From Marsupella aquatica (Eukaryota > Plantae > Marchantiophyta), in contig OZ316893.1 of the NCBI GenBank assembly GCA_973895155.1, forward strand, positions 16,646,645 through 16,710,644: a stretch of 64,000 nt of DNA, in the 5' to 3' direction. Below, piece by piece: positions 23,215-57,163 of the stretch (the stretch's first letter is position 1; the number at the start of each line of letters is the position of its first letter). Below the pieces are notes generated by a model that did no database searches, was not told the DNA's origin, and was given only the letters and a program-made list of their open reading frames with translations. Position numbers and translations under genes: made by a program.

Positions 23215-23293
23215 TTCGGTTTCCTATTTCTTGTCATCGGTTCCTGTTTTGGGTTTCCTGTTTTCCTGTTTCCTGTCTTATGTAAATACCCCG
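23215..23293 (-). repeat. Right TIR/subterminal ACAGGAAA repeats of the MULE
   Basis: The reverse complement reads cggggtatttacataAGACAGGAAACAGGAAAACAGGAAACC…. Confidence 0.8.
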
Positions 23294-23295
23294 GT

Positions 23296-26744: not shown

Positions 26745-27646
26745 TGGTGCAGGGGCGCCGTTCCTTTTAGGAAGGGCGGACGTGGAGGTAGGAGGTGTGA
26801 GTGGGCAGGGCGGGCTCAGATCTCCAAGTTTAGGATTAGGATCAAGACCAGGAGACGGCCCTGACACTTAGATTAGTGGGATGTTGGATCCACTGGTAGG
26901 AGCAACACTTGTGCTCCTGCCTCGCTATACAATTAGGTAGATTACAGGTAGGATAGATTAAGCTTACGCAGCAAAGTTCTGGACAGATCCGCTGCCAAGA
27001 TAAATACCTGGGCAGCGGGGAGTCAAGGGCCTCTTCTTTAGCAAGTTTTTAGTTGCACCAGCAGGGCTGGGATCAAGTAGTAAGAGAAGCTCTCAGTTAG
27101 TTATACAGTGACCCTTGTGTATATTCATGTTTCCTCATGCCTAAGAACTGAATAGAGTTGGCCTCGCGGCTTAGTTCGCAGAGCTTGTGTATGAGATGTA
27201 CTGTTTGTATGGCAAGTGCATGGTATAACTCAGTTAGAAGGAGTCATTTTGCTATTTGTGTGTCGCATTAACTTGTGTGAAGAGTGCCCACATCAATGAA
27301 GGGAAGTAGCAAGGGAGTGAGAGTTGGATGTGTGGAGCTGAGAGAGGTCTTAGCGGCTTAACCAAGCCAATTGGGGATCATTCCAGCGGCGGAATCCAAA
27401 CATACCTAATGGAAGACCAGGAGAGGAATACAAGGGAAGGCCTAGAATAGGCCGGCTAAGTATCTCATGACCCGATGAAGGATCTATCCAGTATATGTGT
27501 GTAAAATGTTAATAGTAGTAGAAGGAGAGTTAGCAGCGTCCCATGCCGCTAAGCCGCGGAAACGGCCTCGCCGAGGATGAAACCTGCAGGAATCGGCTTG
27601 AGCAAGGGGGTTTTCTTGGGTTTGGGGAGCCATGGGACGCACCACA

Positions 27647-30553: not shown

Positions 30554-31465
30554 TGTGGTGCGTCCCATGGCTCCCTAAACCCAAGAAACCCCCCAGCTCA
30601 AGCCGATTCCCGCAGGTTTCGTGCTTGGCGAGGCCGTTTCCGCGGCTTAGCGGCATGGGACGCTGCTAACCTTCTACTACTACTATTAACATTTTACACA
30701 CATATACTGGACAGATCCTTCATCGGGTCATGAGATACGTAGCCGGCCTAATATAGGCCTTCCCCTGTCTTCCCCTGTCTTCTTGTTAGGTATGTTTGGA
30801 TTCCGCCGCCGGAATGATCCCCAATAGGCTTGGTTAAGCCGCTAAGACCTCTCTCAGCTCGACACATCCAACTCTCACTCCCCTGCTTACTTTCCTTCCT
30901 TCTGTTGATGTGGGCACTCTTCACACAAGTTAATGCGACACACAAATAGCAAAATGACTCATTCTGACTGAGTCATACCATGCACTTGCCATACAAACAG
31001 TACATCTCATACACAAGTTCTGCGAACTAAGCCGTGAGGCCAACTCTATTCAGCTCTTAGGCATGAGGAAACATGAATATACACAAGGGTCACTGTATGA
31101 CTAACCGAGAGCTTCTCGTACTACTTGATCCCAGCCCGGCTGGTGCAAACTAAAAACTTGCTAAAGAAGAGGCCCTGAGCTCCCCGCTGCCCAGGTACTT
31201 ATCCTGGTAGTGGATCCGCCATTCTTTGCATCGTAAGCCTAATCTACTTAACAGTAATCTACTTGCCCGAATCTACCTATGTACAGCAAGGCAGGAGCAC
31301 AAGTGTTGCTCCTACCAGTGGGACCGCAATCCCACTAAACTAAGTGTCAGGGCCGCTCCTGGTTCTGATCCTAATCCTAAACGTGGAGATCCGCGCTCGC
31401 CCTGCCCACTCACGCCTCCTCCCTCCACGTCCGCCCTCCCTAAAAGGAACGGCGCCCTTGCACCG

Positions 31466-34400
31466 TCACGACACCGGTGGTGGATCCTTAATGGACGCCC
31501 CCAACGCTTCCTCCTCAGCCACTGCCGTTGGCCCGCCTACTGACAGATTACCTGCCCTTGACCGAGTCAACTCTCCATCGGCCTGACTGGGTCCACCTTC
31601 GGCTTCAGCCTCGACACCGGCCTCGGCAATACCCACGGCTTCGGCCTCAGTCACTCCCTCGGCTTCGGCCTCAGTCACTCCCTCGGCTTCGGCCTCAGTC
31701 ACTCCCTCGGCTTCGGCCTCTCCTTCCCCTAGGGTAGTTGGATCCCTAGCCGTGACCCTGTCTGGGGTCGGTGCTGGGTCTACCTCCTTGATCACCACGG
31801 CCTGTGAAGTCGTATTACTCCTTGACCCTGAAGGTTTTCGCTTCTTCTTCGTTGGTGGCTCGGCAGCTGGTCCCTTCCCCTTCCCACTTACTTCCGGCAC
31901 TGGTGCAGGTGGCGCGGCTTGTCCTTCGGCAATTACCACCCCTGGTAACTGGTTTGTCCCAACGGGAGATGGACTTGCTGCAGCTAAGCATTTAAATACT
32001 GCGGCTTGTTTCTTCAGCCGCTCTGTTTGGTTGTCGGCCCGCCGTTGTAGGTTCTCCATCTTCCTCGTGATTTCCTCCAACTCCTCTTGGGTTTCATCCA
32101 GGTCCTTACGTGCCCCCTCCAGCTCGTTTTTGGCCTCCTCCTGCTCCCTGTGGGCTTCCTCCAATTCCTTCTTCAAGGTAGCCCTCTCCTCCTGGGTTGC
32201 TCTTAGCTCCTTGTCGAGCTCTACAATGATGACAGACTCCATCTGGTTCATCTTGGCGTAAGTCTGTTCGAGCATCTCGTCCTTCTCCCTTAGGTCGGCC
32301 TTGAAGCTGGCCGTCAGGGACGCAAGCTCCTGCTGCAGCGCCATAATCCCTTGATAGGATTTCCCTAACTCGACCTCCTTCTGCTCAAGGGCTCCGCGGA
32401 TTTTCTCGAGCTCCCCTTTCAACGCCCATTCCTTTCTTTGGGTCTCCGCCATGGCCCGGCTGTTGGCTGTTATGTGGGCCTCCTCTGTATTCTTCAGCTC
32501 TTGCTTCCACTTCTCCCTCTCTTTGATCGTGTCGGCCAACTCTTCCTGCGTCTGAGTCAGTTTATCCTTGATATTCTGATTATCAGCCTGCGCGGTGTCC
32601 AACTGCCCCTGCATGATGTTCAGCTCATGTCGTTTAATCCGCAGTTCATCTTGGGCTTTCTTGGCCGCCCTTAGATCTTCAATCTTGGCTTCCATCCTCC
32701 TAAGCCGCCGAATGACCTCGTCCTTCTTGCTTCTCTCTAAAGCCACCGCTTCTTCTAATTGGTGCTTCTCCAACTGCTCCCTATGGAAAAAGGGTCCTAC
32801 CTCCAACTCCTCTCCAAAGATGCCGAGCGCAAGTTCCCCACACATCTCACCATACTCCATGGCTCTATTCTTAGCGTAGGTGGAGTAAGTAGAAGTGATC
32901 GGCATCGCCCATCGTGGCCTCTGCTCCCAAGCCGTCCTGCGGATCTCTTCAATCGTGGCTAGAGGTTTGCTTCCTTTTTCGGCTAGCCGCCTGATGTCCT
33001 CCGGCCAATCTCCTCCTGGTAAATCCTTTTCCTTAGCCAGGGCGGCCTCTTCCTCCTGCTTGATTCGCTCCTGAAATTCCTGCACCGTCTGTTTTATGCC
33101 GTCGAAGCTCGGGGGAGCAACATCTGGTGGGGGAGACTCAGGGCTACTCTGCTGGTTGGGGTCCCCTCGCACTACCCTTGGAAGTGTGGGGACAAACCGG
33201 CCACAGGTCCTTACTCCTGGAACGTGATGGTCCGACCCATAGCCGGAATTATCATGGCTGCAGTCCTCCACTGCCTCCTCTACCTCTTGGACGTCCGGCT
33301 TCTCCCTCTCCTCTTCGTCGGTAGGAGCTTCAGGCAATTCTGCCTCAGATTCGGAGCTTGAGGTTCCCACGTACATTCGAACACCTGGCTTGGATTCCGG
33401 CCTGATTCTCTCCTTGTCTCCAGCAAAGGGGTTTTCTCTTGTGAGCCGGTGTAGGCCTACCTCTGTAGTAGTGTCCTGCATTGTTGCCGTTGCCGTTGTT
33501 GTTGCCAATGCCGATTTCTTTTCTTTCTCCAGTAGTTTCAGCAGACTCTGCATGCCTGGTTGCTGCATCGGCAAGTCTTCCTTCCTGGGCCTAAACACCT
33601 GCTCGATCGTAGGACTAACAGGTGGTTGAGGCTTCTCAGCCAACGGCCTCGGCGTTGGAGCTTCCTCCGGTGCCCTTACCTGCAGGGGAAGTACCGGGGC
33701 AAAAGTCTGACCTCTGGCATACCGGCACAACAACGGCATGTGATAGCCAAGCCGCGACACGCTCCCCATGCCGATTACCTGCTGCTCCTCCTTTAAGATA
33801 TTCTTCAATTGGTTGAGGAGGTACCCGTTGTAGTCCCAGCTTGGGTCTGGCCTTTCTGCCAGATAGACCTGTGCCTTGCCGATCTCTGCCCTCGGCAAGT
33901 TACAATGCATGGTCACCCGCAAGAAGTCGATCATCTCTCCTATGTGCGGGTTGGTGCAGGTGTTCCGGAAGAAGCCATTCTTCGTTGATGGCCCGAGGAA
34001 CGACCGGAACTCCTTGTCAGGCAGGGTCTTCCTGGTATCAACTTTGGTCTTATTGCCTATCGGCAAGCCAAACACTTCGGCAATTACCTTGGGAGTAAGA
34101 TAGAAATCCTTCCCATATATCCTCGTGCAATTGGTCTCGGGTTCCCATGACCCCACGAATTCTAATAGGTCTGACTCCGGTACCTCCGGCTTCAGCCATG
34201 GTAATTTTACAAAGGCCTCCAAGCCGGATCCGGCCATGAAGCCTTGGTACTTCTTGGTCTGCATGGCCGTAAAGCATGCATCCTCCTCCCGTGCAAAATG
34301 TAGTTGCACCTCCACCGGTAGGGTTGCCGCCCAGCCCTTCCAGGTGTCATCCCTGGTTGGAATGGCCTTGATGGGATCGACCTCCTCCTCTTCGGCTTCT

Positions 34401-35113
34401 CCCTGCCTCCTGCTCTGCTGCTCGGCTGGCTTCTTTGGTGCCGCCGACCTCGTTCTTTTTGCCGGGGTGGCTTCATCGTTGACGGCCCCCTTCCTCTTCA
34501 TCTCTGCTGCCGTGGAGGTTTCTCCTAGCACCGTTGCCTGGGTCCACCTTTCCGTGCTACCCTTTAATTCCCAGTGTATGTCGTTGCAGTTCTTGATGGC
34601 CTCTCGGATGCCGACGACGCTGTCTTTGCAAAACAGAAGATCGTCGAGTTGATTGGAAGTAGGCGTCCACAGGAACTCGTCCTTGATGAGTTCGCCTCCT
34701 AAGAAAGCCGTCTTCTGCAGCTCCCACAATCGAGCGAGCTCCTGCCGTTCTCGAGCTGCCCTTTCTGACTCCTCGTCCTCGTAAGTCTTGATGTACTCAG
34801 TTGCCCGTTCGAACAGGCATCCCCAGAAATGTGCCGCTTGATTGACGTTGCTCATACCCTCCTTAGGTTGATCGTCGGTATCTACTCTCTCCCCGAGTGC
34901 TTGCCTAAGCAGCTGACAGAAGTTGGCCTCCCGTAGTCGTCTGCCTAGTTCGTGCTCGCAAATGAGCCACCATCTCCTGCAAGCGCTCCTTACCCCTCTC
35001 CTCTGCCGGTCCTTCTTCCCGTTGATCCTTCCTAGCCGCCGACGCTTAACGCGCCCTAACCCTAATCGGGTTTTCACCCTCAGCCTTACCTCCGGCCTCT
35101 GCCCGGGTTCCAT
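31466..35113 (-). CDS. Intact 1215-aa LTR-encoded protein: plant-transposon-protein-like globular domain, long coiled coil and acidic tail
   Basis: Uninterrupted ORF entirely within the LTR. GLEAFVKLPW…LEFVGSW…IYGKDFYLTPKVIAEVFGLP domain, E/K/L/Q-rich heptad region and KKKRK NLS-like motif. Confidence 0.85.
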   Translation of the reverse strand: MEPGQRPEVRLRVKTRLGLGRVKRRRLGRINGKKDRQRRGVRSACRRWWLICEHELGRRLREANFCQLLRQALGERVDTDDQPKEGMSNVNQAAHFWGCLFERATEYIKTYEDEESERAARERQELARLWELQKTAFLGGELIKDEFLWTPTSNQLDDLLFCKDSVVGIREAIKNCNDIHWELKGSTERWTQATVLGETSTAAEMKRKGAVNDEATPAKRTRSAAPKKPAEQQSRRQGEAEEEEVDPIKAIPTRDDTWKGWAATLPVEVQLHFAREEDACFTAMQTKKYQGFMAGSGLEAFVKLPWLKPEVPESDLLEFVGSWEPETNCTRIYGKDFYLTPKVIAEVFGLPIGNKTKVDTRKTLPDKEFRSFLGPSTKNGFFRNTCTNPHIGEMIDFLRVTMHCNLPRAEIGKAQVYLAERPDPSWDYNGYLLNQLKNILKEEQQVIGMGSVSRLGYHMPLLCRYARGQTFAPVLPLQVRAPEEAPTPRPLAEKPQPPVSPTIEQVFRPRKEDLPMQQPGMQSLLKLLEKEKKSALATTTATATMQDTTTEVGLHRLTRENPFAGDKERIRPESKPGVRMYVGTSSSESEAELPEAPTDEEEREKPDVQEVEEAVEDCSHDNSGYGSDHHVPGVRTCGRFVPTLPRVVRGDPNQQSSPESPPPDVAPPSFDGIKQTVQEFQERIKQEEEAALAKEKDLPGGDWPEDIRRLAEKGSKPLATIEEIRRTAWEQRPRWAMPITSTYSTYAKNRAMEYGEMCGELALGIFGEELEVGPFFHREQLEKHQLEEAVALERSKKDEVIRRLRRMEAKIEDLRAAKKAQDELRIKRHELNIMQGQLDTAQADNQNIKDKLTQTQEELADTIKEREKWKQELKNTEEAHITANSRAMAETQRKEWALKGELEKIRGALEQKEVELGKSYQGIMALQQELASLTASFKADLREKDEMLEQTYAKMNQMESVIIVELDKELRATQEERATLKKELEEAHREQEEAKNELEGARKDLDETQEELEEITRKMENLQRRADNQTERLKKQAAVFKCLAAASPSPVGTNQLPGVVIAEGQAAPPAPVPEVSGKGKGPAAEPPTKKKRKPSGSRSNTTSQAVVIKEVDPAPTPDRVTARDPTTLGEGEAEAEGVTEAEAEGVTEAEAEGVTEAEAVGIAEAGVEAEAEGGPSQADGELTRSRAGNLSVGGPTAVAEEEALGASIKDPPPVS
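31638..31718 (-). repeat. 24-bp coding minisatellite (EAEAEGVT)n
   Basis: 3 units here, 2 in the 5' LTR and 1 variant unit in the 5838 solo LTR. Accounts for the 24-bp LTR length difference. Confidence 0.9.
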
Positions 35114-35216
35114 GGTTGCCCCTAATTGTTTATATTTTCCTTGTTTTGTCCCTATACTAAGGTGTTCCTAGGGTGCCTTCCTGCTTTACCCACTTAACCG
35201 GCCGAGTGATTCCTGT

Positions 35217-38200
35217 CTAGGCATCACATAGCTCCCCACTTAATTGTGAAGCGTCCTCGCGAACAACTTCATCTTCGTCCATATAGTATTTCTTGAGGCG
35301 GTCATAATGGATGCGAACTGGATATACCTCTCCCGTAATGTTGGCCAATTGTACGGAGCCATTGGGGAACATCATGGTTACTCTAAAGGGTCCTAACCAG
35401 CGAGTGTAAAGCTTTCCTGGAAACCTACTATACCTACTGTCATAAAGTAGCACAAGATGACCGGTATGAATACTAACTACTTTTAACCTTTTATCATACT
35501 GCTGCTTCATGATATTCTGTCTATATTCTACTCTCTCGGCTGAAATCATTCTCGCTTCCTCTAAAGCTTCTAACCTATATTCTCGCTCCTTTAGGCTCTC
35601 CTCCGCTGAGGCTCTTTCCTCAATTGTAACTTGAAATGTCGGTATCTCAAGTTGCATGGGTACCAGGGCTTCTTGTCCAAAGGTTAAGAAGAAGAAGGGT
35701 GTATGACCGGTAGTGGATTTATAGGCAAGATTGTAAGCAAAAACAGCAGCAAACAATTTATCATCCCAATCGAGTTTGTTCTGAGCTACTGTCTTGTTCA
35801 ATATCTTTCCTATGATCCCGTTTGCTCGTTCTGTCAACCCGTTTGCCTTTGGATGGTAGGGAGTAGTAGGCCTATGTTTAACTAAATACTGCTCATTTAA
35901 ACGACTAATTATATCATTCAAAAAATGGGTTCCTCTATCACTAACTAATTCTAGGGGTGCTCCATACCTGGTGAAGATCTGCTCATACATGAATCTAGCC
36001 GTAGTAATTGCATCATCCTTCGTTGTTGGTCTGGCCTCTACCCATTTAGTTGCATAATCCGTAGCCAGGATTATGTACTTGTTCCGTCGAGGGTGAGTCA
36101 GTGGTTTCAGAGGTCCAATGTAATCAATACCCCACTTCTCGAATGGTGCCAGAGGTAGAATAGGGTGCAGTGGATGCCTGGTGGACGCCCTTGGTCCTCC
36201 CGCTCGTTGACAAGGATCGCATTGTTTGATAAACTGATAGACATCTTTGTGCAAGGTGGGCCACCAGTAACCGGCATTTAATATCTTCTTAGACGTGGTT
36301 ACTGGGGCAAAATGTCCTCCGGCCTCCTCTCCATGCATGGCCCGTAGGACTCGTTTTACCTCTCTCTTTTCCAAACACCTTTGAATCGTGCCGTTGATTC
36401 CATGCTTGTGCAGTATGCCTTTAATGCACTGATACTGTCTGACCTTCCGCACAAAGACTGCGGCTTGCTCTCGGCTTAATCCTGGCTGTAATCTGGAAGT
36501 GCTGAGAAATTGTAAAATCTCAGGGTACCATGTACCAGCTATTTCCATAACGAATAGCTCCTCGTCGGGGAATCGATCATCGATGCAATCCGTGGCAGGT
36601 TTACCTGTGATCCTTGAAAAGAAGTCGGCATTGGCATGTAACTTTCCCGGCTTGATCCTCAGCTCATAGTCAAACTCCTGTAATAGCAAAATCCATCTTG
36701 CTACTCTGCCTGTAAGGTCCGGCTTATTGACTAGGTACTTCAAACTTTCATGATCAGTATGAAAGATTACCTTGTACCCTAGTAAATAATGCCTAAACTT
36801 TTTACAAGAATAAATGACTCCTAATGCTTCTCTTTCCGTGGTAGAGTAGTTCCGTTCGGCATCGGCAAGCTGATGGCTTGCGAAGTATATGGGATGGTCC
36901 CTTCCTTTCTCATCCAACTGACTTAGTACTGAGCCAATACAGAAGCCCGAGACATCTACAAAAACATGAAAATCTTTGTTCCAGTCCGGTGCTATCATGA
37001 CTGGGGCCTCTACTAACATCTGCTTCAATTCTACCACCGCTGTGACTCGTTCGGGTGTGGGTTCGAAGTCTGCTCCTGCCTTGAGCATATTGGTTAATGG
37101 TAAAGCCAGCTTGGCAAAATCCTTGATGAACCGGCGATAGTAACCAATGCATCCCAAGAAGGATCTTACATCCTTTATGTTCTTAGGTTGCATGATATCT
37201 AGCCATACTGCTAGCTTACCTTTGTCAATCTCAATGCCCTTCCTTGATACCTTGTGACCTAGTAGCACCCCCTCGGTTACTGCAAAAAAACATTTATCTG
37301 GGTGTAACTTGAGACCCACCTCTCTACATCTCATGAAGGTTTTCCTGAGGTATTTAGCATGTTTCGATGCCTTCCCGAATACTGCAAAGTCATCAATGAA
37401 GATTTCCATGAACTTTCTCAAGTAATCATGAAAAATGTTCACCATTAATCGTTGGAACATAGCTGGTGCGTTGCAGAGTCCAAACGGCATACGATTGAAG
37501 ACATAGATCCCCCATTCCATGATGAAGGCCATCTTGATTTGGTCTTCCTGCCGAATCCTGATTTGGTTATAACCAGAGTATCCATCCATGAATGAATATA
37601 GTTCATGACTGGCTACCATGTCTAGTACCATATCAGTAAACGGTAAAGGAAAATGGTCTTTTAATGTTGCTTCATTCAGCTTCCTGTAATCCTGACAAAC
37701 CCGGATCTTGGGTTTACCATCGGGTCCAGCTTTCTTGGGAACTATCACAATTGGAGACACCCAGTCTGAATGCAGGACTGGAGTGATGAATCCAGCTTCC
37801 ACTAGTTTGTCGATTTCTGTTTTGACCAGCAGGGAATACTTCGGGTTCATCCTTCGAATTGGTTGTCGAAATGATTTGGCTCCTAACATGAGATCAATTC
37901 GATGTTCCCCTAGTGTTGGATCTACTCCCTTTAGATCTTGGTGACTCCATGCAAACACATCCTGAAATTCAATCAATAAGTCACTGATCTCTTTCTCGAG
38001 CTCAGGTGCTAGGTTTCTCCCTAAGTTCAGTTCTCTTCCCTCTCCTAAGTCGAGCTTCCGATATTGCCGTGCTTGGATCATATTAATCTGCTTCTTCAAA
38101 TTCGGGTCCAGTTCGGCTTCCAGTCTCTCTAATCTCATACCTCCATAAACTGGGATCTCGGCTGGACTAGCCGAGTCGGTCCCTTCCTTGGTGTCCATAG

Positions 38201-38486
38201 ATTGTCCCCTTACCGGTCTATTCGGTTTTGAATTAGTGGTCGGCTCCCCTTCCTGCCTTGGCTCTAGATCGTGTCTGTCCATCTCATCCACCTCTTGCTC
38301 CTGAGAGTTAGGCCGCTGTGCTCTCTCGGCTTCTAATAGGGCCTCAATTTGTTCTGCCCTCGTAATCGGCTTGTATGCCGATCCCTTGGTATTTAATTCC
38401 TTGCCGATGATCGATGGCGTTGTGGACCCCGTCGGCTCTGCCACAACGCCTGCAGAAAATCCACTGTCCCTGCTACTGCTCCCCAC
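35217..38486 (-). CDS. pol: Element A pol (RT-RNase H-integrase)
   Basis: WVSPIVIVPKK, DYRKLN, MDGYSGYNQI, MPFGLCNAP, FIDDF, VFVDVS, TDH, GGHF…CDPCQ, WGIDYIG, VSDRG, YHPKANGLTER, WLGPF. Confidence 0.95.
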   Translation of the reverse strand: MGSSSRDSGFSAGVVAEPTGSTTPSIIGKELNTKGSAYKPITRAEQIEALLEAERAQRPNSQEQEVDEMDRHDLEPRQEGEPTTNSKPNRPVRGQSMDTKEGTDSASPAEIPVYGGMRLERLEAELDPNLKKQINMIQARQYRKLDLGEGRELNLGRNLAPELEKEISDLLIEFQDVFAWSHQDLKGVDPTLGEHRIDLMLGAKSFRQPIRRMNPKYSLLVKTEIDKLVEAGFITPVLHSDWVSPIVIVPKKAGPDGKPKIRVCQDYRKLNEATLKDHFPLPFTDMVLDMVASHELYSFMDGYSGYNQIRIRQEDQIKMAFIMEWGIYVFNRMPFGLCNAPAMFQRLMVNIFHDYLRKFMEIFIDDFAVFGKASKHAKYLRKTFMRCREVGLKLHPDKCFFAVTEGVLLGHKVSRKGIEIDKGKLAVWLDIMQPKNIKDVRSFLGCIGYYRRFIKDFAKLALPLTNMLKAGADFEPTPERVTAVVELKQMLVEAPVMIAPDWNKDFHVFVDVSGFCIGSVLSQLDEKGRDHPIYFASHQLADAERNYSTTEREALGVIYSCKKFRHYLLGYKVIFHTDHESLKYLVNKPDLTGRVARWILLLQEFDYELRIKPGKLHANADFFSRITGKPATDCIDDRFPDEELFVMEIAGTWYPEILQFLSTSRLQPGLSREQAAVFVRKVRQYQCIKGILHKHGINGTIQRCLEKREVKRVLRAMHGEEAGGHFAPVTTSKKILNAGYWWPTLHKDVYQFIKQCDPCQRAGGPRASTRHPLHPILPLAPFEKWGIDYIGPLKPLTHPRRNKYIILATDYATKWVEARPTTKDDAITTARFMYEQIFTRYGAPLELVSDRGTHFLNDIISRLNEQYLVKHRPTTPYHPKANGLTERANGIIGKILNKTVAQNKLDWDDKLFAAVFAYNLAYKSTTGHTPFFFLTFGQEALVPMQLEIPTFQVTIEERASAEESLKEREYRLEALEEARMISAERVEYRQNIMKQQYDKRLKVVSIHTGHLVLLYDSRYSRFPGKLYTRWLGPFRVTMMFPNGSVQLANITGEVYPVRIHYDRLKKYYMDEDEVVREDASQLSGELCDA
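35229..35241 (-). promoter_or_regulatory. Polypurine tract of element A
   Basis: AAGTGGGGAGCTA immediately before the TGTGATG LTR start on the - strand. Confidence 0.7.
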
Positions 38487-41383
38487 TTAGCCGTTTCATC
38501 CAATTGGTCTACATCCTTTACTTCCTCCGGAATTGCAGCTAAAAAGGTGGATTCTATTGTAAAGCAGTCCTCGACCTCTTCTTCTTCTTCCAAGTCACCT
38601 TCCATTGGTTCTTGCCATAATCCGCTGGGGGGTACCTCTGGTCCAAAGACACCTTCTTCGGTTAGGTTAGTGAGGCATTCTAACCAACGTACTTCATCGG
38701 CTGACTCCAGTCCACTATCGTACCCATCTACTTCCCTTATGCTTTTCCTACGGTCATCCTTAGTGTCCCAGGATACCGTGATAGAGGGGGTCCCGAAAGT
38801 GAACTGCTTTTTACCCCAATCTTCTATTACCTCAGCTAGGTACAGCCATGGCCTACCAATCAATAGCCGGAATGACGTAGGATTTACCGGCTTCATTACT
38901 ACATAGTTAATGCTAAAGAAGATACCTCCTATCTCTGTCTTGATGCCGGTTAACACTCCCGTCGGAATGACCTGATATCCATTGGCCATGTTCAACACTC
39001 TTCCAGTCATCTCCGGTGTTAGACCCCACCCTTTTGCTGTTGAATCAATCATAATACATACCCCTGATCCTCCATCGATGGGTACCCGTAGTAATAATTC
39101 TCCTTGAATCATTAATGGTAATGCTGGGGCTCCTTGATCTTCTTCTATCATTAGTACGTCGGATCTGGTTGCTACCTTGGGTAATCTCGGCTTGCCGAGA
39201 ATAGCCTTCCTTAATTGCTTCCGGAAGTACGGGCTATTTTTCAATAGTTGACCTACTGTTGCCGAGACTCTAGATTCTAGTACATCTTTAGCCAGGTCAT
39301 AGGGAACAATCGGCTTCTCTTCTGGTGGTGTTTCCGTCTTGGATTCGGCCAGTTTTGCCACGCTAGTCTCCACAGCTGTTGGGTCTTCCGAAGCAAACAA
39401 TGCTTTTGCTCGTTTTACATCCTTGGCAATGGCTTCGGTATTCTCCAGGGTTTCTAATTCTCTTAGTTGTTCCTTAACACTAGCCGTAACAGAGGGGTAG
39501 AACAACTTAGGATGATCTCGATTGAAGTCGCTATCTTGTGAAGGATTGGTTTCACTGGTGGGCTCATGGCTTACCTGTATTGCCGGAGCCCTCCCTTCTC
39601 CTTCTGTTGATGTTGACGAAGAGTCGATCCTTTCCTCCGTAACCTTCCCTTTATTTTTGGCCAGCCCATCCCACCTTTCCTTCCTTCTGGTAGATCGAGT
39701 AGAGACCCGGTAGCAATCATGATCTAAATCCTCCTCTGAGAAGGTTGATAGGGCTTCGGCCTCATCATCAGATGATACGAACTCTGCCTCGGCATCCTCT
39801 TGCCATCCTAGTTCGATGTGGTTGATTTGAACTCCTCCGGGGGTAGTACCTGGCGGTAAGATCTTGATCGGCAAAAGCTTATGATTTGCGGCCAGGCCTG
39901 CCAACCAAGTAGGACATTGCCCTAGCATATGACCTTCCTGTCGGTATCCCATACATAGCTGAGCTGGTTGTCCATCACCCTGTTTGCGTGCATTCGGGCA
40001 TTCTCTAGCAAAATGGCCAGGTTGACCACAATTATAGCACGCCGCAAATCTTTGCACATTCGGCCTAGGAGGTACTGACGGGTTCTGAATAATCCGAGGA
40101 TACATCTCTCCTGGATTGTTCCTTAACCCTGACCACAGAGATGCAGGTCTGTTGGATAGGTCTCGTGCTCCAGTCTCATTGATGCCGAAAACACTATCAG
40201 CGGCATCTCCCAAAAAGTACTCTACTTCTCCCTGACATGGTCTGATCTCGGCCACATGCCGAACATGATTAGTATTAAGCTTAGGACACGCATCTTTATG
40301 GTGTCCGGTTTTATAACATAAGGCACACCATACAGAGCTATCCTCCTGTACTACCTTCTTCTTTGGTTTTACCTCTGCAATGATAGCCTTAAGTTGCTCG
40401 GTAAGGGCTACGATGTTATCTGGTGGCTTAGCCTCCATCTTGACTTTCGTCTTCCCTCTCCTTCTGCCCTTCCTTTTCCTAGTTTTTTCTTCTTCAGAAC
40501 TAGAAGATGACTCACTCTTGCTACTCCCACTATCCGAGCTTGACTTATCACTTCTAGACTTCTTGGAATGTTTCTTCTTCTTATCTTTTTTCTTATGGGG
40601 TGATCCCTCCTCTGATGAGGAACTCTCAGACTTAAGCTGTTTCTTCCGGCTTGTGATATCTGCATTAATGTATAATTGAATATCCTTAATTGCTTCGGCT
40701 AAAGTCTCTGGGTTCTCCTTCCTAATTGCAAAACTCATCTTCTGTGGCAAAGCATTCACCAACCATTGAAGTTGCATACCTTCAGATGCATTGGTCTTTG
40801 TACGTCTTACCAGTTTCTGAAAGCGTTGCAAGAACTTCCTGAAGGATTTGTTCTCCTTGAACCGAAGTTGTCCCAACTTCAGCACTGCTAGTTCTGAAGT
40901 TCCAATGGGTCGAAACTCCTTAACAAAGAGTGTTTTGAAGATATCCCAGATGGCTTGATCTTCCACATCTAATGCTCTGTACCAAGGCCTAGCCTCACCC
41001 TTGAACAGGCCGGGAAGAATCTGCATCTTGATGGCCGATTCTCCATTTGCTGCAGCGGTTCCCTCGAAATCATCCAACCATTCGTCCGGATCCTCATCTC
41101 CTCTCCCATGAAATGCCTTGTAATGTATGCGCGACCGCTGGCTCAATCTGGTCCCTGGCCTCTCGTCTGGCCGTGCCTCTGGTTCCCCCATGTCGGTTGG
41201 AGACTCACTTCTCCTTACCGACTCTTCTTCTGGTATGTCTTCTTCGACGCCACTTCCAGTTTCGGAGCTACCAGCTCTTTCTGCCCCTCTCAGTCGCTGT
41301 GTATCATGCCACCCGGCGAGCTGCTGCAGTCGAGCTCTCTCCCGTTGAATCACTCTTTCTTCCCTCGGCGTAAGGTCAGTCAT
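38393..41383 (-). CDS. gag: Element A gag-protease
   Basis: FHGRGDEDPDEWLDDFE, CCHC knuckles (CALCYKTGHHKDAC, CYNCGQPGHFAREC), protease PIDGGSG…LLIGRPW. Confidence 0.95.
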   Translation of the reverse strand: MTDLTPREERVIQRERARLQQLAGWHDTQRLRGAERAGSSETGSGVEEDIPEEESVRRSESPTDMGEPEARPDERPGTRLSQRSRIHYKAFHGRGDEDPDEWLDDFEGTAAANGESAIKMQILPGLFKGEARPWYRALDVEDQAIWDIFKTLFVKEFRPIGTSELAVLKLGQLRFKENKSFRKFLQRFQKLVRRTKTNASEGMQLQWLVNALPQKMSFAIRKENPETLAEAIKDIQLYINADITSRKKQLKSESSSSEEGSPHKKKDKKKKHSKKSRSDKSSSDSGSSKSESSSSSEEEKTRKRKGRRRGKTKVKMEAKPPDNIVALTEQLKAIIAEVKPKKKVVQEDSSVWCALCYKTGHHKDACPKLNTNHVRHVAEIRPCQGEVEYFLGDAADSVFGINETGARDLSNRPASLWSGLRNNPGEMYPRIIQNPSVPPRPNVQRFAACYNCGQPGHFARECPNARKQGDGQPAQLCMGYRQEGHMLGQCPTWLAGLAANHKLLPIKILPPGTTPGGVQINHIELGWQEDAEAEFVSSDDEAEALSTFSEEDLDHDCYRVSTRSTRRKERWDGLAKNKGKVTEERIDSSSTSTEGEGRAPAIQVSHEPTSETNPSQDSDFNRDHPKLFYPSVTASVKEQLRELETLENTEAIAKDVKRAKALFASEDPTAVETSVAKLAESKTETPPEEKPIVPYDLAKDVLESRVSATVGQLLKNSPYFRKQLRKAILGKPRLPKVATRSDVLMIEEDQGAPALPLMIQGELLLRVPIDGGSGVCIMIDSTAKGWGLTPEMTGRVLNMANGYQVIPTGVLTGIKTEIGGIFFSINYVVMKPVNPTSFRLLIGRPWLYLAEVIEDWGKKQFTFGTPSITVSWDTKDDRRKSIREVDGYDSGLESADEVRWLECLTNLTEEGVFGPEVPPSGLWQEPMEGDLEEEEEVEDCFTIESTFLAAIPEEVKDVDQLDETAKWGAVAGTVDFLQALWQSRRGPQRHRSSARN

Positions 41384-41430
41384 TACCTACGCTTCCGTTC
41401 TAACTTCATATCTCACGGCTTAAGAAATGC

Positions 41431-41448
41431 CCCCTCCATCTAGCGCCA
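41431..41448 (-). promoter_or_regulatory. PBS of element A (probably tRNA-Asn)
   Basis: TGGCGCTAGATGGAGGGG, 4 nt from the 5' LTR. One mismatch to the complement of the plant tRNA-Asn(GTT) 3' end as I recall it. Confidence 0.85.
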
Positions 41449-41452
41449 AAAA

Positions 41453-44400
41453 TGTGGTGCGTCCCATGGCTCCCTAAACCCAAGAAACCCCCCAGCTCAA
41501 GCCGATTCCCGCAGGTTTCGTGCTTGGCGAGGCCGTTTCCGCGGCTTAGCGGCATGGGACGCTGCTAACCTTCTACTACTACTATTAACATTTTACACAC
41601 ATATACTGGACAGATCCTTCATCAGGTCATGAGATACGTAGCCGGCCTAATATAGGCCTTCCCCTGTCTTCCCCTGTCTTCTTGTTAGGTATGTTTGGAT
41701 TCCGCCGCCGGAATGATCCCCAATAGGCTTGGTTAAGCCGCTAAGACCTCTCTCAGCTCGACACATCCAACTCTCACTCCCCTGCTTACTTTCCTTCCTT
41801 CTGTTGATGTGGGCACTCTTCACACAAGTTAATGCGACACACAAATAGCAAAATGACTCATTCTGACTGAGTCATACCATGCACTTGCCATACAAACAGT
41901 ACATCTCATACACAAGTTCTGCGAACTAAGCCGTGAGGCCAACTCTATTCAGCTCTTAGGCATGAGGAAACATGAATATACACAAGGGTCACTGTATGAC
42001 TAACCGAGAGCTTCTCGTACTACTTGATCCCAGCCCGGCTGGTGCAAACTAAAAACTTGCTAAAGAAGAGGCCCTGAGCTCCCCGCTGCCCAGGTACTTA
42101 TCCTGGTAGTGGATCCGCCATTCTTTGCATCGTAAGCCTAATCTACTTAACAGTAATCTACTTGCCCGAATCTACCTATGTACAGCAAGGCAGGAGCACA
42201 AGTGTTGCTCCTACCAGTGGGACCGCAATCCCACTAAGCTAAGTGTCAGGGCCGCTCCTGGTTCTGATCCTAATCCTAAACGTGGAGATCCGCGCTCGCC
42301 CTGCCCACTCACGCCTCCTCCCTCCACGTCCGCCCTCCCTAAAAGGAACGGCGCCCTTGCACCGTCACGACACCGGTGGTGGATCCTTAATGGACGCCCC
42401 CAACGCTTCCTCCTCAGCCACTGCCGTTGGCCCGCCTACTGACAGATTACCTGCCCTTGACCGAGTCAACTCTCCATCGGCCTGACTGGGTCCACCTTCG
42501 GCTTCAGCCTCGACACCGGCCTCGGCAATACCCACGGCTTCGGCCTCAGTCACTCCCTCGGCTTCGGCCTCAGTCACTCCCTCGGCTTCGGCCTCTCCTT
42601 CCCCTAGGGTAGTTGGATCCCTAGCCGTGACCCTGTCTGGGGTCGGTGCTGGGTCTACCTCCTTGATCACCACGGCCTGTGAAGTCGTATTACTCCTTGA
42701 CCCTGAAGGTTTTCGCTTCTTCTTCGTTGGTGGCTCGGCAGCTGGTCCCTTCCCCTTCCCACTTACTTCCGGCACTGGTGCAGGTGGCGCGGCTTGTCCT
42801 TCGGCAATTACCACCCCTGGTAACTGGTTTGTCCCAACGGGAGATGGACTTGCTGCAGCTAAGCATTTAAATACTGCGGCTTGTTTCTTCAGCCGCTCTG
42901 TTTGGTTGTCGGCCCGCCGTTGTAGGTTCTCCATCTTCCTCGTGATTTCCTCCAACTCCTCTTGGGTTTCATCCAGGTCCTTACGTGCCCCCTCCAGCTC
43001 GTTTTTGGCCTCCTCCTGCTCCCTGTGGGCTTCCTCCAATTCCTTCTTCAAGGTAGCCCTCTCCTCCTGGGTTGCTCTTAGCTCCTTGTCGAGCTCTACA
43101 ATGATGACAGACTCCATCTGGTTCATCTTGGCGTAAGTCTGTTCGAGCATCTCGTCCTTCTCCCTTAGGTCGGCCTTGAAGCTGGCCGTCAGGGACGCAA
43201 GCTCCTGCTGCAGCGCCATAATCCCTTGATAGGATTTCCCTAACTCGACCTCCTTCTGCTCAAGGGCTCCGCGGATTTTCTCGAGCTCCCCTTTCAACGC
43301 CCATTCCTTTCTTTGGGTCTCCGCCATGGCCCGGCTGTTGGCTGTTATGTGGGCCTCCTCTGTATTCTTCAGCTCTTGCTTCCACTTCTCCCTCTCTTTG
43401 ATCGTGTCGGCCAACTCTTCCTGCGTCTGAGTCAGTTTATCCTTGATATTCTGATTATCAGCCTGCGCGGTGTCCAACTGCCCCTGCATGATGTTCAGCT
43501 CATGTCGTTTAATCCGCAGTTCATCTTGGGCTTTCTTGGCCGCCCTTAGATCTTCAATCTCGTCTTCCATCCTCCTAAGCCGCCGAATGACCTCGTCCTT
43601 CTTGCTTCTCTCTAAAGCCACCGCTTCTTCTAATTGGTGCTTCTCCAACTGCTCCCTATGGAAAAAGGGTCCTACCTCCAACTCCTCTCCAAAGATGCCG
43701 AGCGCAAGTTCCCCACACATCTCACCATACTCCATGGCTCTATTCTTAGCGTAGGTGGAGTAAGTAGAAGTGATCGGCATCGCCCATCGTGGCCTCTGCT
43801 CCCAAGCCGTCCTGCGGATCTCTTCAATCGTGGCTAGAGGTTTGCTTCCTTTTTCGGCTAGCCGCCTGATGTCCTCCGGCCAATCTCCTCCTGGTAAATC
43901 CTTTTCCTTAGCCAGGGCGGCCTCTTCCTCCTGCTTGATTCGCTCCTAAAATTCCTGCACCGTCTGTTTTATGCCGTCGAAGCTCGGGGGAGCAACATCT
44001 GGTGGGGGAGACTCAGGGCTACTCTGCTGGTTGGGGTCTCCTCGCACTACCCTTGGAAGTGTGGGGACAAACCGGCCACAGGTCCTTACTCCTGGAACGT
44101 GATGGTCCGACCCATAGCCGGAATTATCATGGCTGCAGTCCTCCACTGCCTCCTCTACCTCTTGGACGTCCGGCTTCTCCCTCTCCTCTTCGTCGGTAGG
44201 AGCTTCAGGCAATTCTGCCTCAGATTCGGAGCTTGAGGTTCCCACGTACATTCGAACACCTGGCTTGGATTCCGGCCTGATTCTCTCCTTGTCTCCAGCA
44301 AAGGGGTTTTCTCTTGTGAGCCGGTGTAGGCCTACCTCTGTAGTAGTGTCCTGCATTGTTGCCGTTGCCGTTGTTGTTGCCAATGCCGATTTCTTTTCTT

Positions 44401-46103
44401 TCTCCAGTAGTTTCAGCAGACTCTGCATGCCTGGTTGCTGCATCGGCAAGTCTTCCTTCCTGGGCCTAAACACCTGCTCGATCGTAGGACTAACAGGTGG
44501 TTGAGGCTTCTCAGCCAACGGCCTCGGCGTTGGAGCTTCCTCCGGTGCCCTTACCTGCAGGGGAAGTACCGGGGCGAAAGTCTGACCTCTGGCATACCGG
44601 CACAACAGCGGCATGTGATAGCCAAGCCGCGACACGCTCCCCATGCCGATTACCTGCTGCTCCTCCTTTAAGATCTTCTTCAATTGGTTGAGGAGGTACC
44701 CGTTGTAGTCCCGGCTTGGGTCTGGCCTTTCTGCCAGATAGACCTGTGCCTTGCCGATCTCTGCCCTCGGCAAGTTACAATGCATGGTCACCCGCAAGAA
44801 GTCGATCATCTCTCCTATGTGTGGGTTGGTGCAGGTGTTCCGGAAGAAGCCATTCTTCGTTGATGGCCCGGGGAACGACCGGAACTCCTTGTCAGGCAGG
44901 GTCTTCCTGGTATCAACTTTGGTCTTATTGCCTATCGGCAACCCAAACACTTCGGCAATTACCTTGGGAGTAAGATAGAAATCCTTCCCATATATCCTCG
45001 TGCAATTGGTCTCGGGTTCCCATGACCCCACGAATTCTAATAGGTCTGACTCCGGTACCTCCGGCTTCAGCCATGGTAATTTTACAAAGGCCTCCAAGCC
45101 GGATCCGGCCATGAAGCCTTGGTACTTCTTGGTCTGCATGGCCGTAAAGCATGCATCCTCCTCCCGTGCAAAATGTAGTTGCACCTCCACCGGTAGGGTT
45201 GCCGCCCAACCCTTCCAGGTGTCATCCCTGGTTGGAATGGCCTTGATGGGATCGACCTCCTCCTCTTCGGCTTCTCCCTGCCTCCTGCTCTGCTGCTCGG
45301 CTGGCTTCTTTGGTGCCGCCGACCTCGTTCTTTTTGCCGGGGTGGCTTCATTGTTGACGGCCCCCTTCCTCTTCATCTCTGCTGCCGTGGAGGTTTCTCC
45401 TAGCACCGTTGCCTGGGTCCACCTTTCCGTGCTACCCTTTAATTCCCAGTGTATGTCGTTGCAGTTCTTGATGGCCTCTCGGATGCCGACGACGCTGTCT
45501 TTGCAAAATAGAAGATCGTCGAGTTGATTGGAAGTAGGCGTCCACAGGAACTCGTCCTTGATGAGTTCGCCTCCTAAGAAAGCCGTCTTCTGCAGCTCCC
45601 ACAATCGAGCGAGCTCCTGCCGTTCTCGAGCTGCCCTTTCTGACTCCTCGTCCTCGTAAGTCTTGATGTACTCAGTTGCCCGTTCGAACAGGCATCCCCA
45701 GAAATGTGCCGCTTGATTGACGTTGCTCATACCCTCCTTAGGTTGATCGTCGGTATCTACTCTCTCCCCGAGTGCTTGCCTAAGCAGCTGACAGAAGTTG
45801 GCCTCCCGTAGTCGTCTGCCTAGTTCGTGCTCGCAAATGAGCCACCATCTCCTGCAAGCGCTCCTTACCCCTCTCCTCTGCCGGTCCTTCTTCCCGTTGA
45901 TCCTTCCTAGCCGCCGACGCTTAACGCGCCCTAACCCTAATCGGGTTTTCACCCTCAGCCTTACCTCCGGCCTCTGCCCGGGTTCCATGGTTGCCCCTAA
46001 TTGTTTATATTTTCCTTGTTTTGTCCCTATACTAAGGTGTTCCTAGGGTGCCTTCCTGCTTTACCCACTTAACCGGCCGAGTGATTCCTGTCTAGGCATC
46101 ACA
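41453..46103 (-). repeat. 5' LTR of element A (4651 bp)
   Basis: Direct repeat of 30554-35228. Roughly 15-20 substitutions and one 24-bp indel by eye. Confidence 0.97.
42365..45988 (-). pseudogene. 5' LTR copy of the LTR-encoded protein with one nonsense change
   Basis: CAG>TAG at 43946-43948 splits it into 680-aa and 471-aa ORFs. Confidence 0.92.
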
Positions 46104-47056: not shown

Positions 47057-50000
47057 TGTCATGTCATCAGCCTTGGCCTTAACTCGGGCTTCAGCTTTAA
47101 ACGGGCACCTCCTTCGTAAATATGAGGGTTCGGGCAGGGAGGGAAGAGCGTAATGCACCTAATTCACGTAAACTAGCGCTAAGTGCGCCTACTGTTAGAT
47201 ACAGACATCTCCTAGGTATGGTTTGTGTTCCGCCGCCGGAACGTATCTTAGTCGATAACAGGATCAACCCTGGCTTAAGGACTTCTAAGCCTTCGTGTTG
47301 TTCGCCTTCGATCCGGATTCTATGATACAGGTCCTCAACCCATGCTTGCAACCACATACCCGCAAGCTGCACCCCGTGCATGACTCGGGTAGTGCGTTCG
47401 GCCCGGCGTTGTCACCTATACACGAGATTCACACACACATACACGCGCACAAGCATACAATCTTGATTTACACGAAGGAAATAATGGGAAAGGATTTTAC
47501 TACATAGGGGACATGTGCGTACACTTGGTTGACCCGATAGCTCCGGAATGAACAGGTTCAAGGCCGAGAGAGTATACTACAACGGAGCCCGGCTCCGCAC
47601 TCGCCCGGCGAGCTTAGTCCTACCCCCTCCCCTTGGTACTCTTTCACTCCCAGAGGTCGGGACTCCCCGCACATACCACGGATGTCCAACTCTGAGACTA
47701 AAACCCCCCTACCTCTACCGAGGGGTGCGCTAAATACTAAGGGCCGAGGAACTGAGTGTCCTCCCGCCCGAAGATTCGCTGACTTAGGTCCTAACTAATC
47801 TGACTGTCAGGCCGAAAAACGGTTGTATCTTATTAGAAGATCCTAATCTACGCAGGCTGGACAGCATGGCAGTGCTGCTGTAACTAAGGCAGATGCCTGT
47901 CCCAATAGCCTGACTTAGCTACTCCTAACCCTATTCTATTCCTACTCTGCCGCTAATGCCTGGCACGCTTGCCAGAGCCGCCCGAGTGGGAGCGGCCATC
48001 CCACTGCTTACGAAGTCTGTCGTTGTCCGCCTTGAGGAGCTGGACCTGGTCCAGCAGAGATTCGTTCTCTCGCTTCGCTGTGTCTGTCTCCTCCGCTGCC
48101 TCCTGGCATGCCTCCTCCAGTTGTTGGGCATCGCTCGTCAGCTTGCCCGCCAGCTGGTCCTGCTTCTCGGCTTCGGTTTGGAGCCATGCCACTTCGGCCT
48201 GTAGCGTGGCTATCTCCGCAATGTCCCGCTGGGCCCGTTCTTCGGCCTCCTCCAGGTCCTTCTGCCAGATGACAGTTTGATTCTTCAAACTGTCAATCTG
48301 GTTCCGGAGTCGTGCAATCTCGGCCTCGTTCCCAGCTTTGGCCTGCTCGGCTAGGGCGGTAAAGGCGTGCGCCTTTGCTAACAAATCATCGGCGGCTGCA
48401 ACTTTGGGTCGTAGTTGCAGAAGCTCAGCCTCTTGAGCCGCAACTTCGTTCTCTAAGTATACGGACTCCACCCGGTACCGCTCTATCCTCTGAAGGGCCT
48501 CTGACTGGGCCCGACTTGCCTTTACTGCGGCAACTAACTCCTGATTGAAGAAACAAGCTACCTTCCGGGCCATGAACTCCCCGGTATCCCGGGCAATTTG
48601 ATGAGAGAAATCTCCCAGAAGCCCGTTCAGAAATGTACCTGGTACGAAGAGTTCCGGGTGGTCCAGGTTGTGCCTGTCCGGAGTTGGGCACGGGTAGACG
48701 TCAACACGCGCGGGGGCCGGGGCAGTGACATCCAGCCCTGGGGATGTAATGTTGGAAGGGGCTGGAGTGTCCTCCTACAACAATGTCCGGTTCTCCGGAA
48801 TAGCCACCGGTGGGTCTTTGGGAGACCCGGGCTCGAGTAAGACCTCCGCTGTACCGACTTCTGTACTTAGCCCGGCCTGTTGGATCGCATCTACGGTTGC
48901 GATTACCGACCTATCCGGTACCTCCTCGGTTACGACTACAGCTACTTGTGGGGGTGGGGTGGGTGAAGTTTGCGTGTCCACTGGACTTCGGGCCTCGGGT
49001 TGGGGCCGTCTCTCCAGGGCTGGGAAAACCCACCTAGCTGGGACCAGCTTTGTAACGTTGACACGAGGAAGGGTTCGTCGATCAAACCGAGCGTACCACT
49101 CAAGAATGATCTCGATGTGGCTAGCGAAGTACGCCTTCCCGCCAATGTACAACGTCTTCCTTTGCCGCTCCATCTCTTCATGGAATTTCTTAGCGAAGTA
49201 TGACGCCCACTTCCTAGGTCGATAGTTCTCGACCTGGATAACCTGGGCGGCAGAGATCTCCCCCCGGGGTTCCATCATGTGGAGGGCGTACCTTTGGAAC
49301 TCCAGTCGCTCAGCTATCTCGGGGATGAGGCAGGTCCTCATCACGAACCCGTTGTCCACTGATCCCTCTGAGGGAAAACTCGAGGATTGGTACTTGGCTC
49401 CCTTGCCCCCGGGAGCCCGTGATTTGACTCGATGGTCACCTTCGGGTAATCCAAAGATCATCTTGAGCCGTTCTTCCGTGAGGGACATATTCCTTCCCCG
49501 CAGCCGAGTATGTTGACGTGCATCATCATAATTCTTGATGAATTCTGTCATGTCCTCCCCGTAGTACCTGCAAGTGTTCCAGGGGAGAGAGGCGAGGTGC
49601 TTGAATCCCCGAGTCTTCAGGTACACCGCATGCTTGGGATGGAGGATGTTCTTATGCACGTTTTCCCCCATGCGGTGCATTGTTACCTTGGCCACGGCTA
49701 CCGTGGCCAAGGGTAACCCGGATGTAGTGGTGGGTTCCTTCCTCTTCTTCCCCCGTGACTGGCTCGGGGAGGGTGACACCTCCCCATCCTCTCGATCGGG
49801 CATAGGTAGTGCTACCGCCGTTAGTATTGGTCCCGGGGTGGCCACGGTCACCGTGTTGTCTGCTGGAGCCGCTCCTTGGGTCCGAGCATGGGGAGGAGAC
49901 GATGTAGTGTCGGCCCCCTGAGTGTTTGCTCCTCTGGGCCGCCTGAGCAAGGGTGGGGTAGCCTCGTCATCATCGCTAAGATCCACAGCGTTGATGACAA

Positions 50001-54356: not shown

Positions 54357-54404
54357 GTTGAGTTCCTCTTCCTCCGAGGTCTCCGAATCATATTCCTCAG
54401 GTCC

Positions 54405-57040: not shown

Positions 57041-57133
57041 TTACTCGTGTAAATGCGATGGTTAGTACTAGGGCCTGGTGTATTCTGCCCAGGCGAATAT
57101 GCACATGTCTCCCCTCTACGATATGTAGAGTGC

Positions 57134-57151
57134 CCCCTCCATCTAGCGCCA
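57134..57151 (-). promoter_or_regulatory. PBS of element B (same as A)
   Basis: TGGCGCTAGATGGAGGGG, 12 nt from the LTR end at 57164. Confidence 0.85.
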
Positions 57152-57163
57152 AAACAAAGGCTA

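Follow-up and report, generated by a model that had tools for sequence, protein, structure and literature searches.

A Ty3/gypsy retrotransposon of Marsupella aquatica carries a selectively maintained gene inside its long terminal repeats

Introduction

Why should the long terminal repeat (LTR) of a retrotransposon consist mostly of one open reading frame (ORF), and what might the encoded protein do for the element? The question is raised by an LTR retrotransposon, here called element B, in a 64,000-nucleotide stretch of the liverwort Marsupella aquatica (assembly GCA_973895155.1, contig OZ316893.1, positions 16,646,645 to 16,710,644 of the forward strand), which as a whole is referred to as the window and to which all coordinates below refer. 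In the available text of three reviews the extra ORFs of plant elements are placed in the internal region (PMC7264820, PMC6317226, PMC6431247). Our literature search found no plant ORF inside a retrotransposon LTR; Steinbauerova et al. and the REXdb element table, which could list such cases, lay outside its coverage.

Our results indicate that B is a recent Ty3/gypsy insertion with a selection-maintained gene in its LTRs. The product, predicted to be a VANC/PMD-like protein, would bind the word WWGCCGA and counter host silencing, a reading to which we assign a probability of roughly 0.55.

Results

The architecture of element B is as follows.

30554..46103, minus strand: element B, full-length Ty3/gypsy LTR retrotransposon, 15.55 kb, target-site duplication (TSD) CCTCT
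41453..46103, minus strand: 5' LTR, 4651 bp, its ORF copy with a nonsense codon and one 24-nt repeat unit fewer
41430..41448, minus strand: primer-binding site (PBS), 4 nt past the 5' LTR, core identical in element E
38393..41383, minus strand: Gag-protease (Gag-PR) ORF, 996 aa, Pfam Retrotrans_gag and zf-CCHC, protease-like DGG motif
38416..38462, minus strand: predicted -1 frameshift signal at the junction of Gag-PR and reverse transcriptase (RT), slippery G GAT TTT, 6-nt spacer, hairpin
35217..38486, minus strand: RT-RNase H-integrase frame (Pfam), open to the polypurine tract
35229..35247, minus strand: polypurine tract (PPT), overlapped by the last codons of pol
30554..35228, minus strand: 3' LTR, 4675 bp
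35129..35134, minus strand: TATA-like TATAAA, LTR nt 95, conserved in copy D
30554..31465, minus strand: non-coding LTR tail, 912 nt, 7.9% diverged from D
30557..30671, minus strand: long hairpin at the LTR 3' end, adjoining the PBS in the 5' LTR, -63.3 kcal/mol, z -4.9 in B and -1.8 in D

The initial annotation had drawn the LTR limits from TSD, PBS and PPT, and these limits held. The TSD lies at 30549-30553 and 46104-46108, both LTRs have the form TG...CA, the PBS reads TGGCGCTAGATGGAGGGGG (which we take to be of the tRNA-Arg type) and the PPT directly ahead of the 3' LTR reads AAGTGGGGAGCTA. Self-BLAST of the window returned a direct repeat of 30554-35241 and 41453-46114 with 99.06% identity. 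Two solo LTRs with 5-bp TSDs of their own independently show the 4.65-kb unit to be an LTR.

5838..10464, minus strand: solo LTR A, 4627 bp, TSD AGTTG, identity to B ~98%; two small deletions and a stop disrupt the ORF
11785..27646, plus strand: solo LTR D, TSD AGCCG, from a diverged subfamily (about 84-86%), interrupted at 12166-23292 by an insertion

Between the LTRs of B there are 16 substitutions and a single indel, one 24-nt repeat unit, so the insertion is recent. Ten of the 16 substitutions are private to the 5' LTR, and these LTR differences are mostly C>T or G>A. An excess of synonymous changes between the LTRs (7 of 14), with p 0.02-0.09 according to how strong a transition bias is assumed, is not read here as evidence of selection or gene conversion. 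The element is covered by Logan contigs from four runs; in runs X1 and X2 each of the 11 LTR bins was deeper than all 14 internal bins (median ratio 3.6-3.7, a summed contig depth that is not a copy number), and the depth steps fall at the LTR ends of B. Some pol bins of B were inflated in X3 and X6, probably by other elements.

The offset between the Gag-PR and RT frames is kept in an X3 contig, so the frameshift is probably programmed and pol intact. The hairpin of the frameshift signal has a 9-bp stem (z -3.1), and element E has one frame at that place. In lying behind the protease, the frameshift of B resembles the pro-pol shift of betaretroviruses. The pol frame ends a few codons into the 3' LTR, and the 5' LTR is separated from the gag ATG by a leader of only 69 nt. 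This leader contains two short upstream ORFs, the stop of the second overlapping the gag ATG, and an acceptor-like AG/GT stands 3 nt ahead of that ATG. Donor-like GGTAAG sites occur at 35090 and 34994 (minus strand), within the first 240 nt of the LTR. The final 115 nt of the LTR give a rod-like hairpin, which was not seen in E and is weaker in D. No usable Rfam match was obtained across element B.

The LTR ORF is a real gene under purifying selection. As had been noted initially, it lies in sense orientation wholly within each LTR (35113-31466, 78.0% of the LTR) and is intact in the 3' LTR, the 5' copy having one nonsense change, at codon 681. The TATA-like element described at about 100 bp into the LTR is likewise there, at 35134-35129.

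31466..35113, minus strand: LTR ORF, 3648 bp, 1215 aa from Met1 or 1129 aa from Met87 (34855)
33674..34381, minus strand: globular domain, aa 245-480, predicted PMD/DUF1985 (VANC21-like) fold, model pLDDT 76
31997..32770, minus strand: predicted coiled coil, aa about 782-1039, proline-free (crude heptad scan)
31632..31720, minus strand: 24-nt tandem array in the ORF tail, 3.7 copies, AAGCCGA in each unit

Neutrality between subfamilies, with a ratio of nonsynonymous to synonymous divergence (dN/dS) near 1, had been put forward, together with a lack of transcription, as an outcome that would speak against the gene. Against the diverged copy D, 1183 codons gave a dS of 0.385, a dN of 0.101 and a dN/dS of 0.26. 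Constraint was strongest in the globular domain (0.10 for aa 251-470), followed by aa 87-250 (0.16), the coiled coil (0.23) and the tail (0.46), and the other two sense frames had no comparable bias. Twelve ORF variants, a subset of 536, comprised 5 synonymous and 7 other changes; these are differences of the B copy from the majority and were not used.

Codons 1-86 behave otherwise, with a dN/dS of about 1.1 at a low dS (0.15), although the frame is open in D. The TATAAA ends 15 nt ahead of Met1, so that a transcript starting 25-35 nt downstream of it could not include Met1, and homologs (P0012 and that of element E) start with a similar N-terminus near Met87, as judged by eye. The lack of a selection signal in these codons, the homologous N-termini and the TATA spacing make Met87 at least as likely a start as Met1; the start codon may thus be Met87 (34855), giving a protein of 1129 aa.

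The protein consists of an acidic N-terminal part, the globular domain, a long disordered linker, the coiled coil of about 260 aa and an NLS-like motif, PTKKKRK at aa 1087, which is a predicted nuclear signal. It contains no hydrophobic segment (top 19-residue hydropathy 0.82), and an env-like role was rejected on that ground. Pfam gave for the full ORF only a sub-threshold coiled-coil match, and Atlas gave no usable match for aa 87-199. Word-indexed homolog searches yielded 0 of 493, 0 of 5081 and 2 of 7996 candidates, and a full HMMER scan yielded 19 proteins at E up to 0.001, from which P0006 (a likely repeat artefact), P0017 and P0018 were excluded when alignments were built. Named homologs of the globular domain came from the liverwort Calypogeia fissa (4 records), the remainder being unnamed or hypothetical proteins, and its Atlas neighbours belong to Streptophyta.

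Two relatives of B lie next to it in the window.

47057..58237, minus strand: element E, sister family, pol 63% identical to B at the amino acid level; 3' LTR at 47057-51071 (4015 bp) with a broken homologous gene; 5' LTR interrupted by F
58238..64000, minus strand: element F, distant family, pol 42% identical (amino acids); the homologous domain, fused in frame to integrase, breaks off mid-domain and is followed downstream by an LTR that is apparently short (about 1.1 kb)

In E a near-identical PPT stands at the end of pol and is followed by the 4015-bp LTR, with TATAAAA at nt 360 and the broken homologous ORF, whose likely start codon lies 108 nt downstream of the TATAAAA. Contigs in three of four runs join 58237 to 48140, and in X1, X2 and X5 the depth over 48140-51071 exceeded that of the internal part of E in most bins; together, the junction contigs and the depth confirm the long LTR of E. 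The initial annotation had allowed that other family members might have short LTRs with the ORF internal; the sister family instead has a 4-kb, ORF-bearing LTR, and the gene-in-LTR layout is a trait of the lineage. From Gag-PR to pol E is one frame with two stops, and its PBS lies 12 nt past the apparent LTR end (57135-57163, minus strand), as against the usual 0-5 nt. In F, 59353-62805 (minus strand) encodes integrase and about 640 extra residues in frame, terminating in a VANC-like domain cut mid-domain; the other end of F lies outside the window.

AlphaFold2 models of the globular domains of B and E, which are 22% identical to each other, were built on a 26-row alignment. The best of the five B models had a pLDDT of 76 (the other four 41-61); for E the best value was 78 and all five fell at 76-78. 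When VIA-align compared the models with 48,161 solved chains, DNA-bound VANC21 was the sole chain with Z >= 5 for both domains (B: Z 8.0, rmsd 4.3, 203 residues aligned, next best 2.2; E: Z 8.3, rmsd 4.2, 208 residues aligned, next best 2.6). Foldseek placed VANC21 fourth for B (TM 0.50, E 1.8) and first for E (TM 0.48, probability 0.91, E 0.095). The Atlas leads for the B domain were DUF1985 (0.88) and PMD (0.87), both below the 0.9 threshold, the latter being a cluster with PMD on 20% of its members. A profile search of PDB sequences returned nothing usable, nor did Foldseek against viral models (best E 0.079, rmsd 19.9).

An Athila ORF1-like or plant-transposon protein had been the initial candidate for this domain. 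This identity received no Pfam match, including none to the Athila ORF-1 domain (PF03078), and the evidence points to a PMD/DUF1985 (VANC) fold. PMD and the DUF1985 domain of VANC are structurally alike, according to the parts available of two reports (10.1101/2024.09.27.615353; PMC13547354), and the available text of a meeting report mentions a VANC-DNA structure as unpublished (PMC12859917). Judging by the models, the ORF protein most probably belongs, as a distant relative, to the PMD/DUF1985 structural family, here found in a new location.

Element B is also enriched in a short word of its own. The test covered 9555 nt of B coding DNA, with the 24-nt array excluded, and took its expectation from synonymous-codon shuffles. 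TGCCGA occurred 24 times against 5.7 expected (z 8.8, when the top z of any 6-mer in 150 shuffles was 5.3). The wider word WWGCCGA, defined only after that result, occurred 32 times against 8.0 expected, a count reached by 0 of 300 shuffles; it was found 2 times in E (4.0 expected) and 2 times in F (2.1 expected).

30600..40701, both strands: WWGCCGA, 38 dispersed copies (19 in the LTR, 19 internal; one LTR counted)

These sites lie in the LTR ORF, gag and pol, each unit of the 24-nt array having one, and D keeps 15 of them. The core of the DRE/CRT element is GCCGAC; since WWGCCGA is followed by C in only 2 of the 38 copies, it is not that core. VANC21 binds a short family-specific 9-mer that accrued through tandem repeats in non-coding parts of its element, and it removes methylation, according to the available text of PMC5735166; the parallel with WWGCCGA is suggestive.

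The best candidate word of E, TACMCG, was chosen post hoc (12 against 6.4 expected, matched by 7 of 300 shuffles), and CGATYA, also post hoc, was enriched in F (16 against 6.4). TTAGG in the non-coding LTR of B (13 against 3.8) was set aside, its enrichment being within the shuffle maximum. No telobox AAACCCTA was present anywhere in element B.

Discussion

We propose that transcription of the LTR gene would begin at the TATA close to the LTR start and end at a poly(A) site within the tail, and that a nuclear, oligomeric DNA-binding protein would recognise WWGCCGA on the copies of its family and prevent their silencing, as VANC does for VANDAL elements. Each LTR has promoter-like, coding and poly(A)-like sequence, so that solo LTRs could express the gene wherever the transcript starts, and every LTR, solo ones included, might be a stand-alone gene acting in trans; in both solo LTRs of the window the ORF is broken. 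A wider claim, that a gypsy lineage of non-flowering plants turned its LTR into a self-contained anti-silencing cassette in which a VANC/PMD-fold protein reads a private, CpG-containing word, is tentative, and we place it somewhat short of even odds.

Several observations weigh against the anti-silencing proposal. Expression, binding and demethylation are presumed for the ORF protein. Pfam gives neither PMD (PF10536) nor DUF1985 for the ORF domain, a Z of 8 is borderline by the tool's own scale at 8-12% identity to VANC21, the Foldseek E-values were 1.8 and 0.095, one of the five B models reached a pLDDT of 70, and the models of B and E, coming from one alignment, are not fully independent. 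The CpGs of WWGCCGA were not significantly better kept in D (10 of 12 against 92 of 140, p 0.34). The sites are mostly coding and irregularly spaced, with no non-coding array in element B, whereas the targets of VANC are described in the available text of PMC5735166 as non-coding tandem repeats. In E, which has the same gene, no word survived multiple testing.

A different role would be that of a chromatin tether or an accessory factor of integration or of the particle, with the word unrelated or a site for a host factor. In F the integrase C-terminus, where other gypsy elements have their chromodomain, continues in frame into the domain; a common fold proves no function, and E is without a clear private word. 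We nevertheless consider such a role unlikely, though worth keeping in view: copies of WWGCCGA are scattered over both strands of B itself, the word is specific to its family and, seldom having a C after it, is not the DRE/CRT core, and the three TSDs all differ. It is rather less probable still that the protein binds the motif and represses the element as a control of copy number, in the manner of MAIN/MAIL-type PMD proteins tied to silencing of transposable elements. Accumulating solo LTRs would raise the dose of such a repressor; the family, however, is abundant and young, and in the available text of 10.1101/2024.09.27.615353 the effect of MAIL1/MAIN on transposable elements is indirect, via MORC1, and PMD-C proteins act against Polycomb silencing. 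A passenger gene, env-like or captured, with no current role would account for the breaks in three of the four B-family copies and in the E copy of the window, but with a dN/dS of 0.26 overall and 0.10 in the globular domain, and with retention in three families at pol identities of 63% and 42%, this is very improbable.

The initial annotation had also raised the question of where the gene sits relative to U3, R and U5. We lean slightly towards a gene in U3 with two promoters, in which an upstream shift of the PPT to the end of pol would have brought the gene into the LTR, and the 0.9-kb tail would hold a second promoter from which genomic RNA starts, gag being its first cistron. The PPT of B stands directly at the pol end, as if shifted upstream beyond a 3' extra ORF, and F has the domain at that place. 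The tail, at 912 nt, is about as long as an ordinary LTR, and its divergence from D is about a fifth of that at the synonymous sites of the ORF (7.9% against a dS of 0.385); near 31090-30910 it contains a stretch that by eye is U/G-rich and poly(A)-like, it has the terminal hairpin and it shares with E the 14-nt TTCCGGCGGCGGAA (alignment score 44, against <=33 in 50 shuffles). An LTR-sized, conserved tail and the 3'-of-pol domain of F fit capture into U3 through an upstream shift of the PPT. Two points tell the other way: the tail has no conserved canonical TATA box, and the order of TATA and ORF in E fits R/U5 equally well. A TATATTA in the tail was rejected as a TATA box, being a hairpin loop that is not conserved in D.

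Placing the gene of the same protein in R/U5 is less probable, yet a genuine contender. A single promoter at the LTR start would then give an R of about 4 kb and a read-through genomic RNA; the ORF mRNA would end at the poly(A) site of the 5' LTR and gag would be a downstream or spliced cistron. All canonical TATA boxes do precede the ORF (LTR nt 95 in both B and D, nt 360 in E), B and D share the donor-like GGTAAG at nt 139 and 235, and in Ogre a sense ORF with PMD and coiled coil (PMD-CC) stands upstream of gag, according to the available text of PMC4408406. This arrangement would, however, depend on transcription passing a poly(A) site that lies 4 kb from the cap, and the genomic RNA would have to reach about 15 kb; the E LTR is without GGTAAG, the tail is LTR-sized and strongly constrained, and F has the domain 3' of pol. 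The TATA boxes of B, D and E fit a promoter of the ORF and are silent on the start of the genomic RNA. Nor is a multi-kb strong-stop DNA diagnostic of R/U5, since plus-strand strong-stop DNA spans the whole LTR under either model. Arrangements other than these two have a small chance.

By structure B is a Ty3/gypsy element, with the order Gag-PR-RT-RNase H-integrase, TG..CA LTRs, a PBS, a PPT and a TSD within the range of 4-6 bp. A chromodomain is absent (no Pfam chromo match, pol stopping at the PPT shortly past a GPY/F-like motif), and so is an aRH domain, Pfam giving one RNase H with about 100 aa between it and the integrase zinc finger. A low-complexity linker precedes RT. The Tat lineages (TatI-III, Ogre, Retand) have an extra aRH between protease and RT, between RNase H and integrase, or after integrase, according to the available text of PMC6317226. 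By domain content rather than by phylogeny, the lack of aRH leaves B outside Tat/Ogre, despite its Gag-PR fusion and its PMD-CC-type gene. For Athila, the OTA elements that lack aRH, an ORF-1 domain (PF03078) would be expected in the extra ORF, and Pfam gave no match to it in B. Like Ogre, B has Gag-PR separate from pol; the PMD-CC ORF of Ogre is internal and 5' of gag, whereas the extra ORF of B is in the LTR, the 5' copy of which is 69 nt from the gag ATG. Phygy and Selgy are described in the same source as short elements with a polyprotein covering nearly the whole internal part; the internal part of B is also nearly all polyprotein, but the element is 15.5 kb long and has an extra gene.

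Among known systems the PMD-CC ORFs of Tat/Ogre elements come close, as far as the available text of PMC4408406 and PMC6317226 describes them: gypsy elements without a chromodomain, with Gag-PR apart from RT, very long LTRs and an extra sense ORF encoding a PMD-like domain and then a coiled coil (both predicted in B). Their ORF stands at the 5' or 3' end of the element beside gag-pol, whereas that of B is inside both LTRs and the solo LTRs; B moreover has no aRH, links protease to RT by a predicted -1 frameshift where Ogre uses an intron, and gave no sequence-level PMD match. The rice elements Retrosat2, RIRE3 and RIRE8 likewise belong to gypsy and combine LTRs longer than 3 kb with an extra ORF and numerous solo LTRs, but in the available text of PMC3485330 they are Tekay chromoviruses whose ORF0 lies upstream of gag-pol and is not part of the LTR. 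The sag gene of MMTV is a protein gene in an LTR with an LTR-internal promoter, as B is proposed to have; according to the available text of PMC4667437 it belongs to a retrovirus, encodes an unrelated protein and lies mostly in U3, a position that is established for sag and presumed for B, whose gene is 3.4-3.6 kb.

With VANC21 of Arabidopsis VANDAL21 (PDB 9LNJ/9LNK), as described in the available text of PMC5735166, the ORF protein shares a predicted fold over about 205 residues, a transposon as its source and a short family-specific word in the element that is amplified by a tandem repeat. VANC21 differs in being the gene of a Mutator-like DNA transposon, VANC being reported as dicot-specific in the available text of PMC13547354; identity is 8-12%, its motif YAGTATTAY lies in non-coding tandem repeats, and binding and demethylation are conjectural for B. 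The DNA-binding DUF1985/VANC fold of the ORF protein comes from predicted structure, and its gene is in an LTR retrotransposon rather than in a VANDAL (Mutator-like) element; it is thus not a VANC gene by membership, though by analogy it may work like one.

If the anti-silencing proposal is correct, a counterpart of the VANC system would for the first time be seen in a retrotransposon, and B would provide a function for PMD-CC extra ORFs, which the available text of PMC4408406 assigns to Tat lineages IV and V and for which it and PMC7264820 describe the function as unknown. Solo-LTR formation is usually taken to erase coding capacity; here a regulatory gene would remain, and every solo LTR left by host recombination would still be a source of a trans-acting factor. 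An intact gene, a structural match to DNA-bound VANC21 and a candidate word in one element open the idea to a binding assay. Families of this kind may be mis-annotated by LTR-finding pipelines built on the assumption of short, non-coding LTRs.

Other elements of the window

The insertion in solo LTR D is 11.1 kb long, with short terminal inverted repeats and a 6-7 bp duplication. By eye, and with no Pfam match, its minus-strand ORFs resemble a Mutator-type transposase with a SWIM finger, and a plus-strand ORF has a ParB-like DGNHR motif. GGCGCTA occurs 27 times in this insertion (0.5 expected), often as palindromic pairs and mostly between the ORFs, and is a candidate for a second self-recognition system.

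The intervals 10465-11784, 27647-30553 and 46104-47056 are pieces of another gypsy element (integrase/RNase H, RT and gag-like frames), apparently the target of the insertions of D, B and E. At least six elements are nested in the window.

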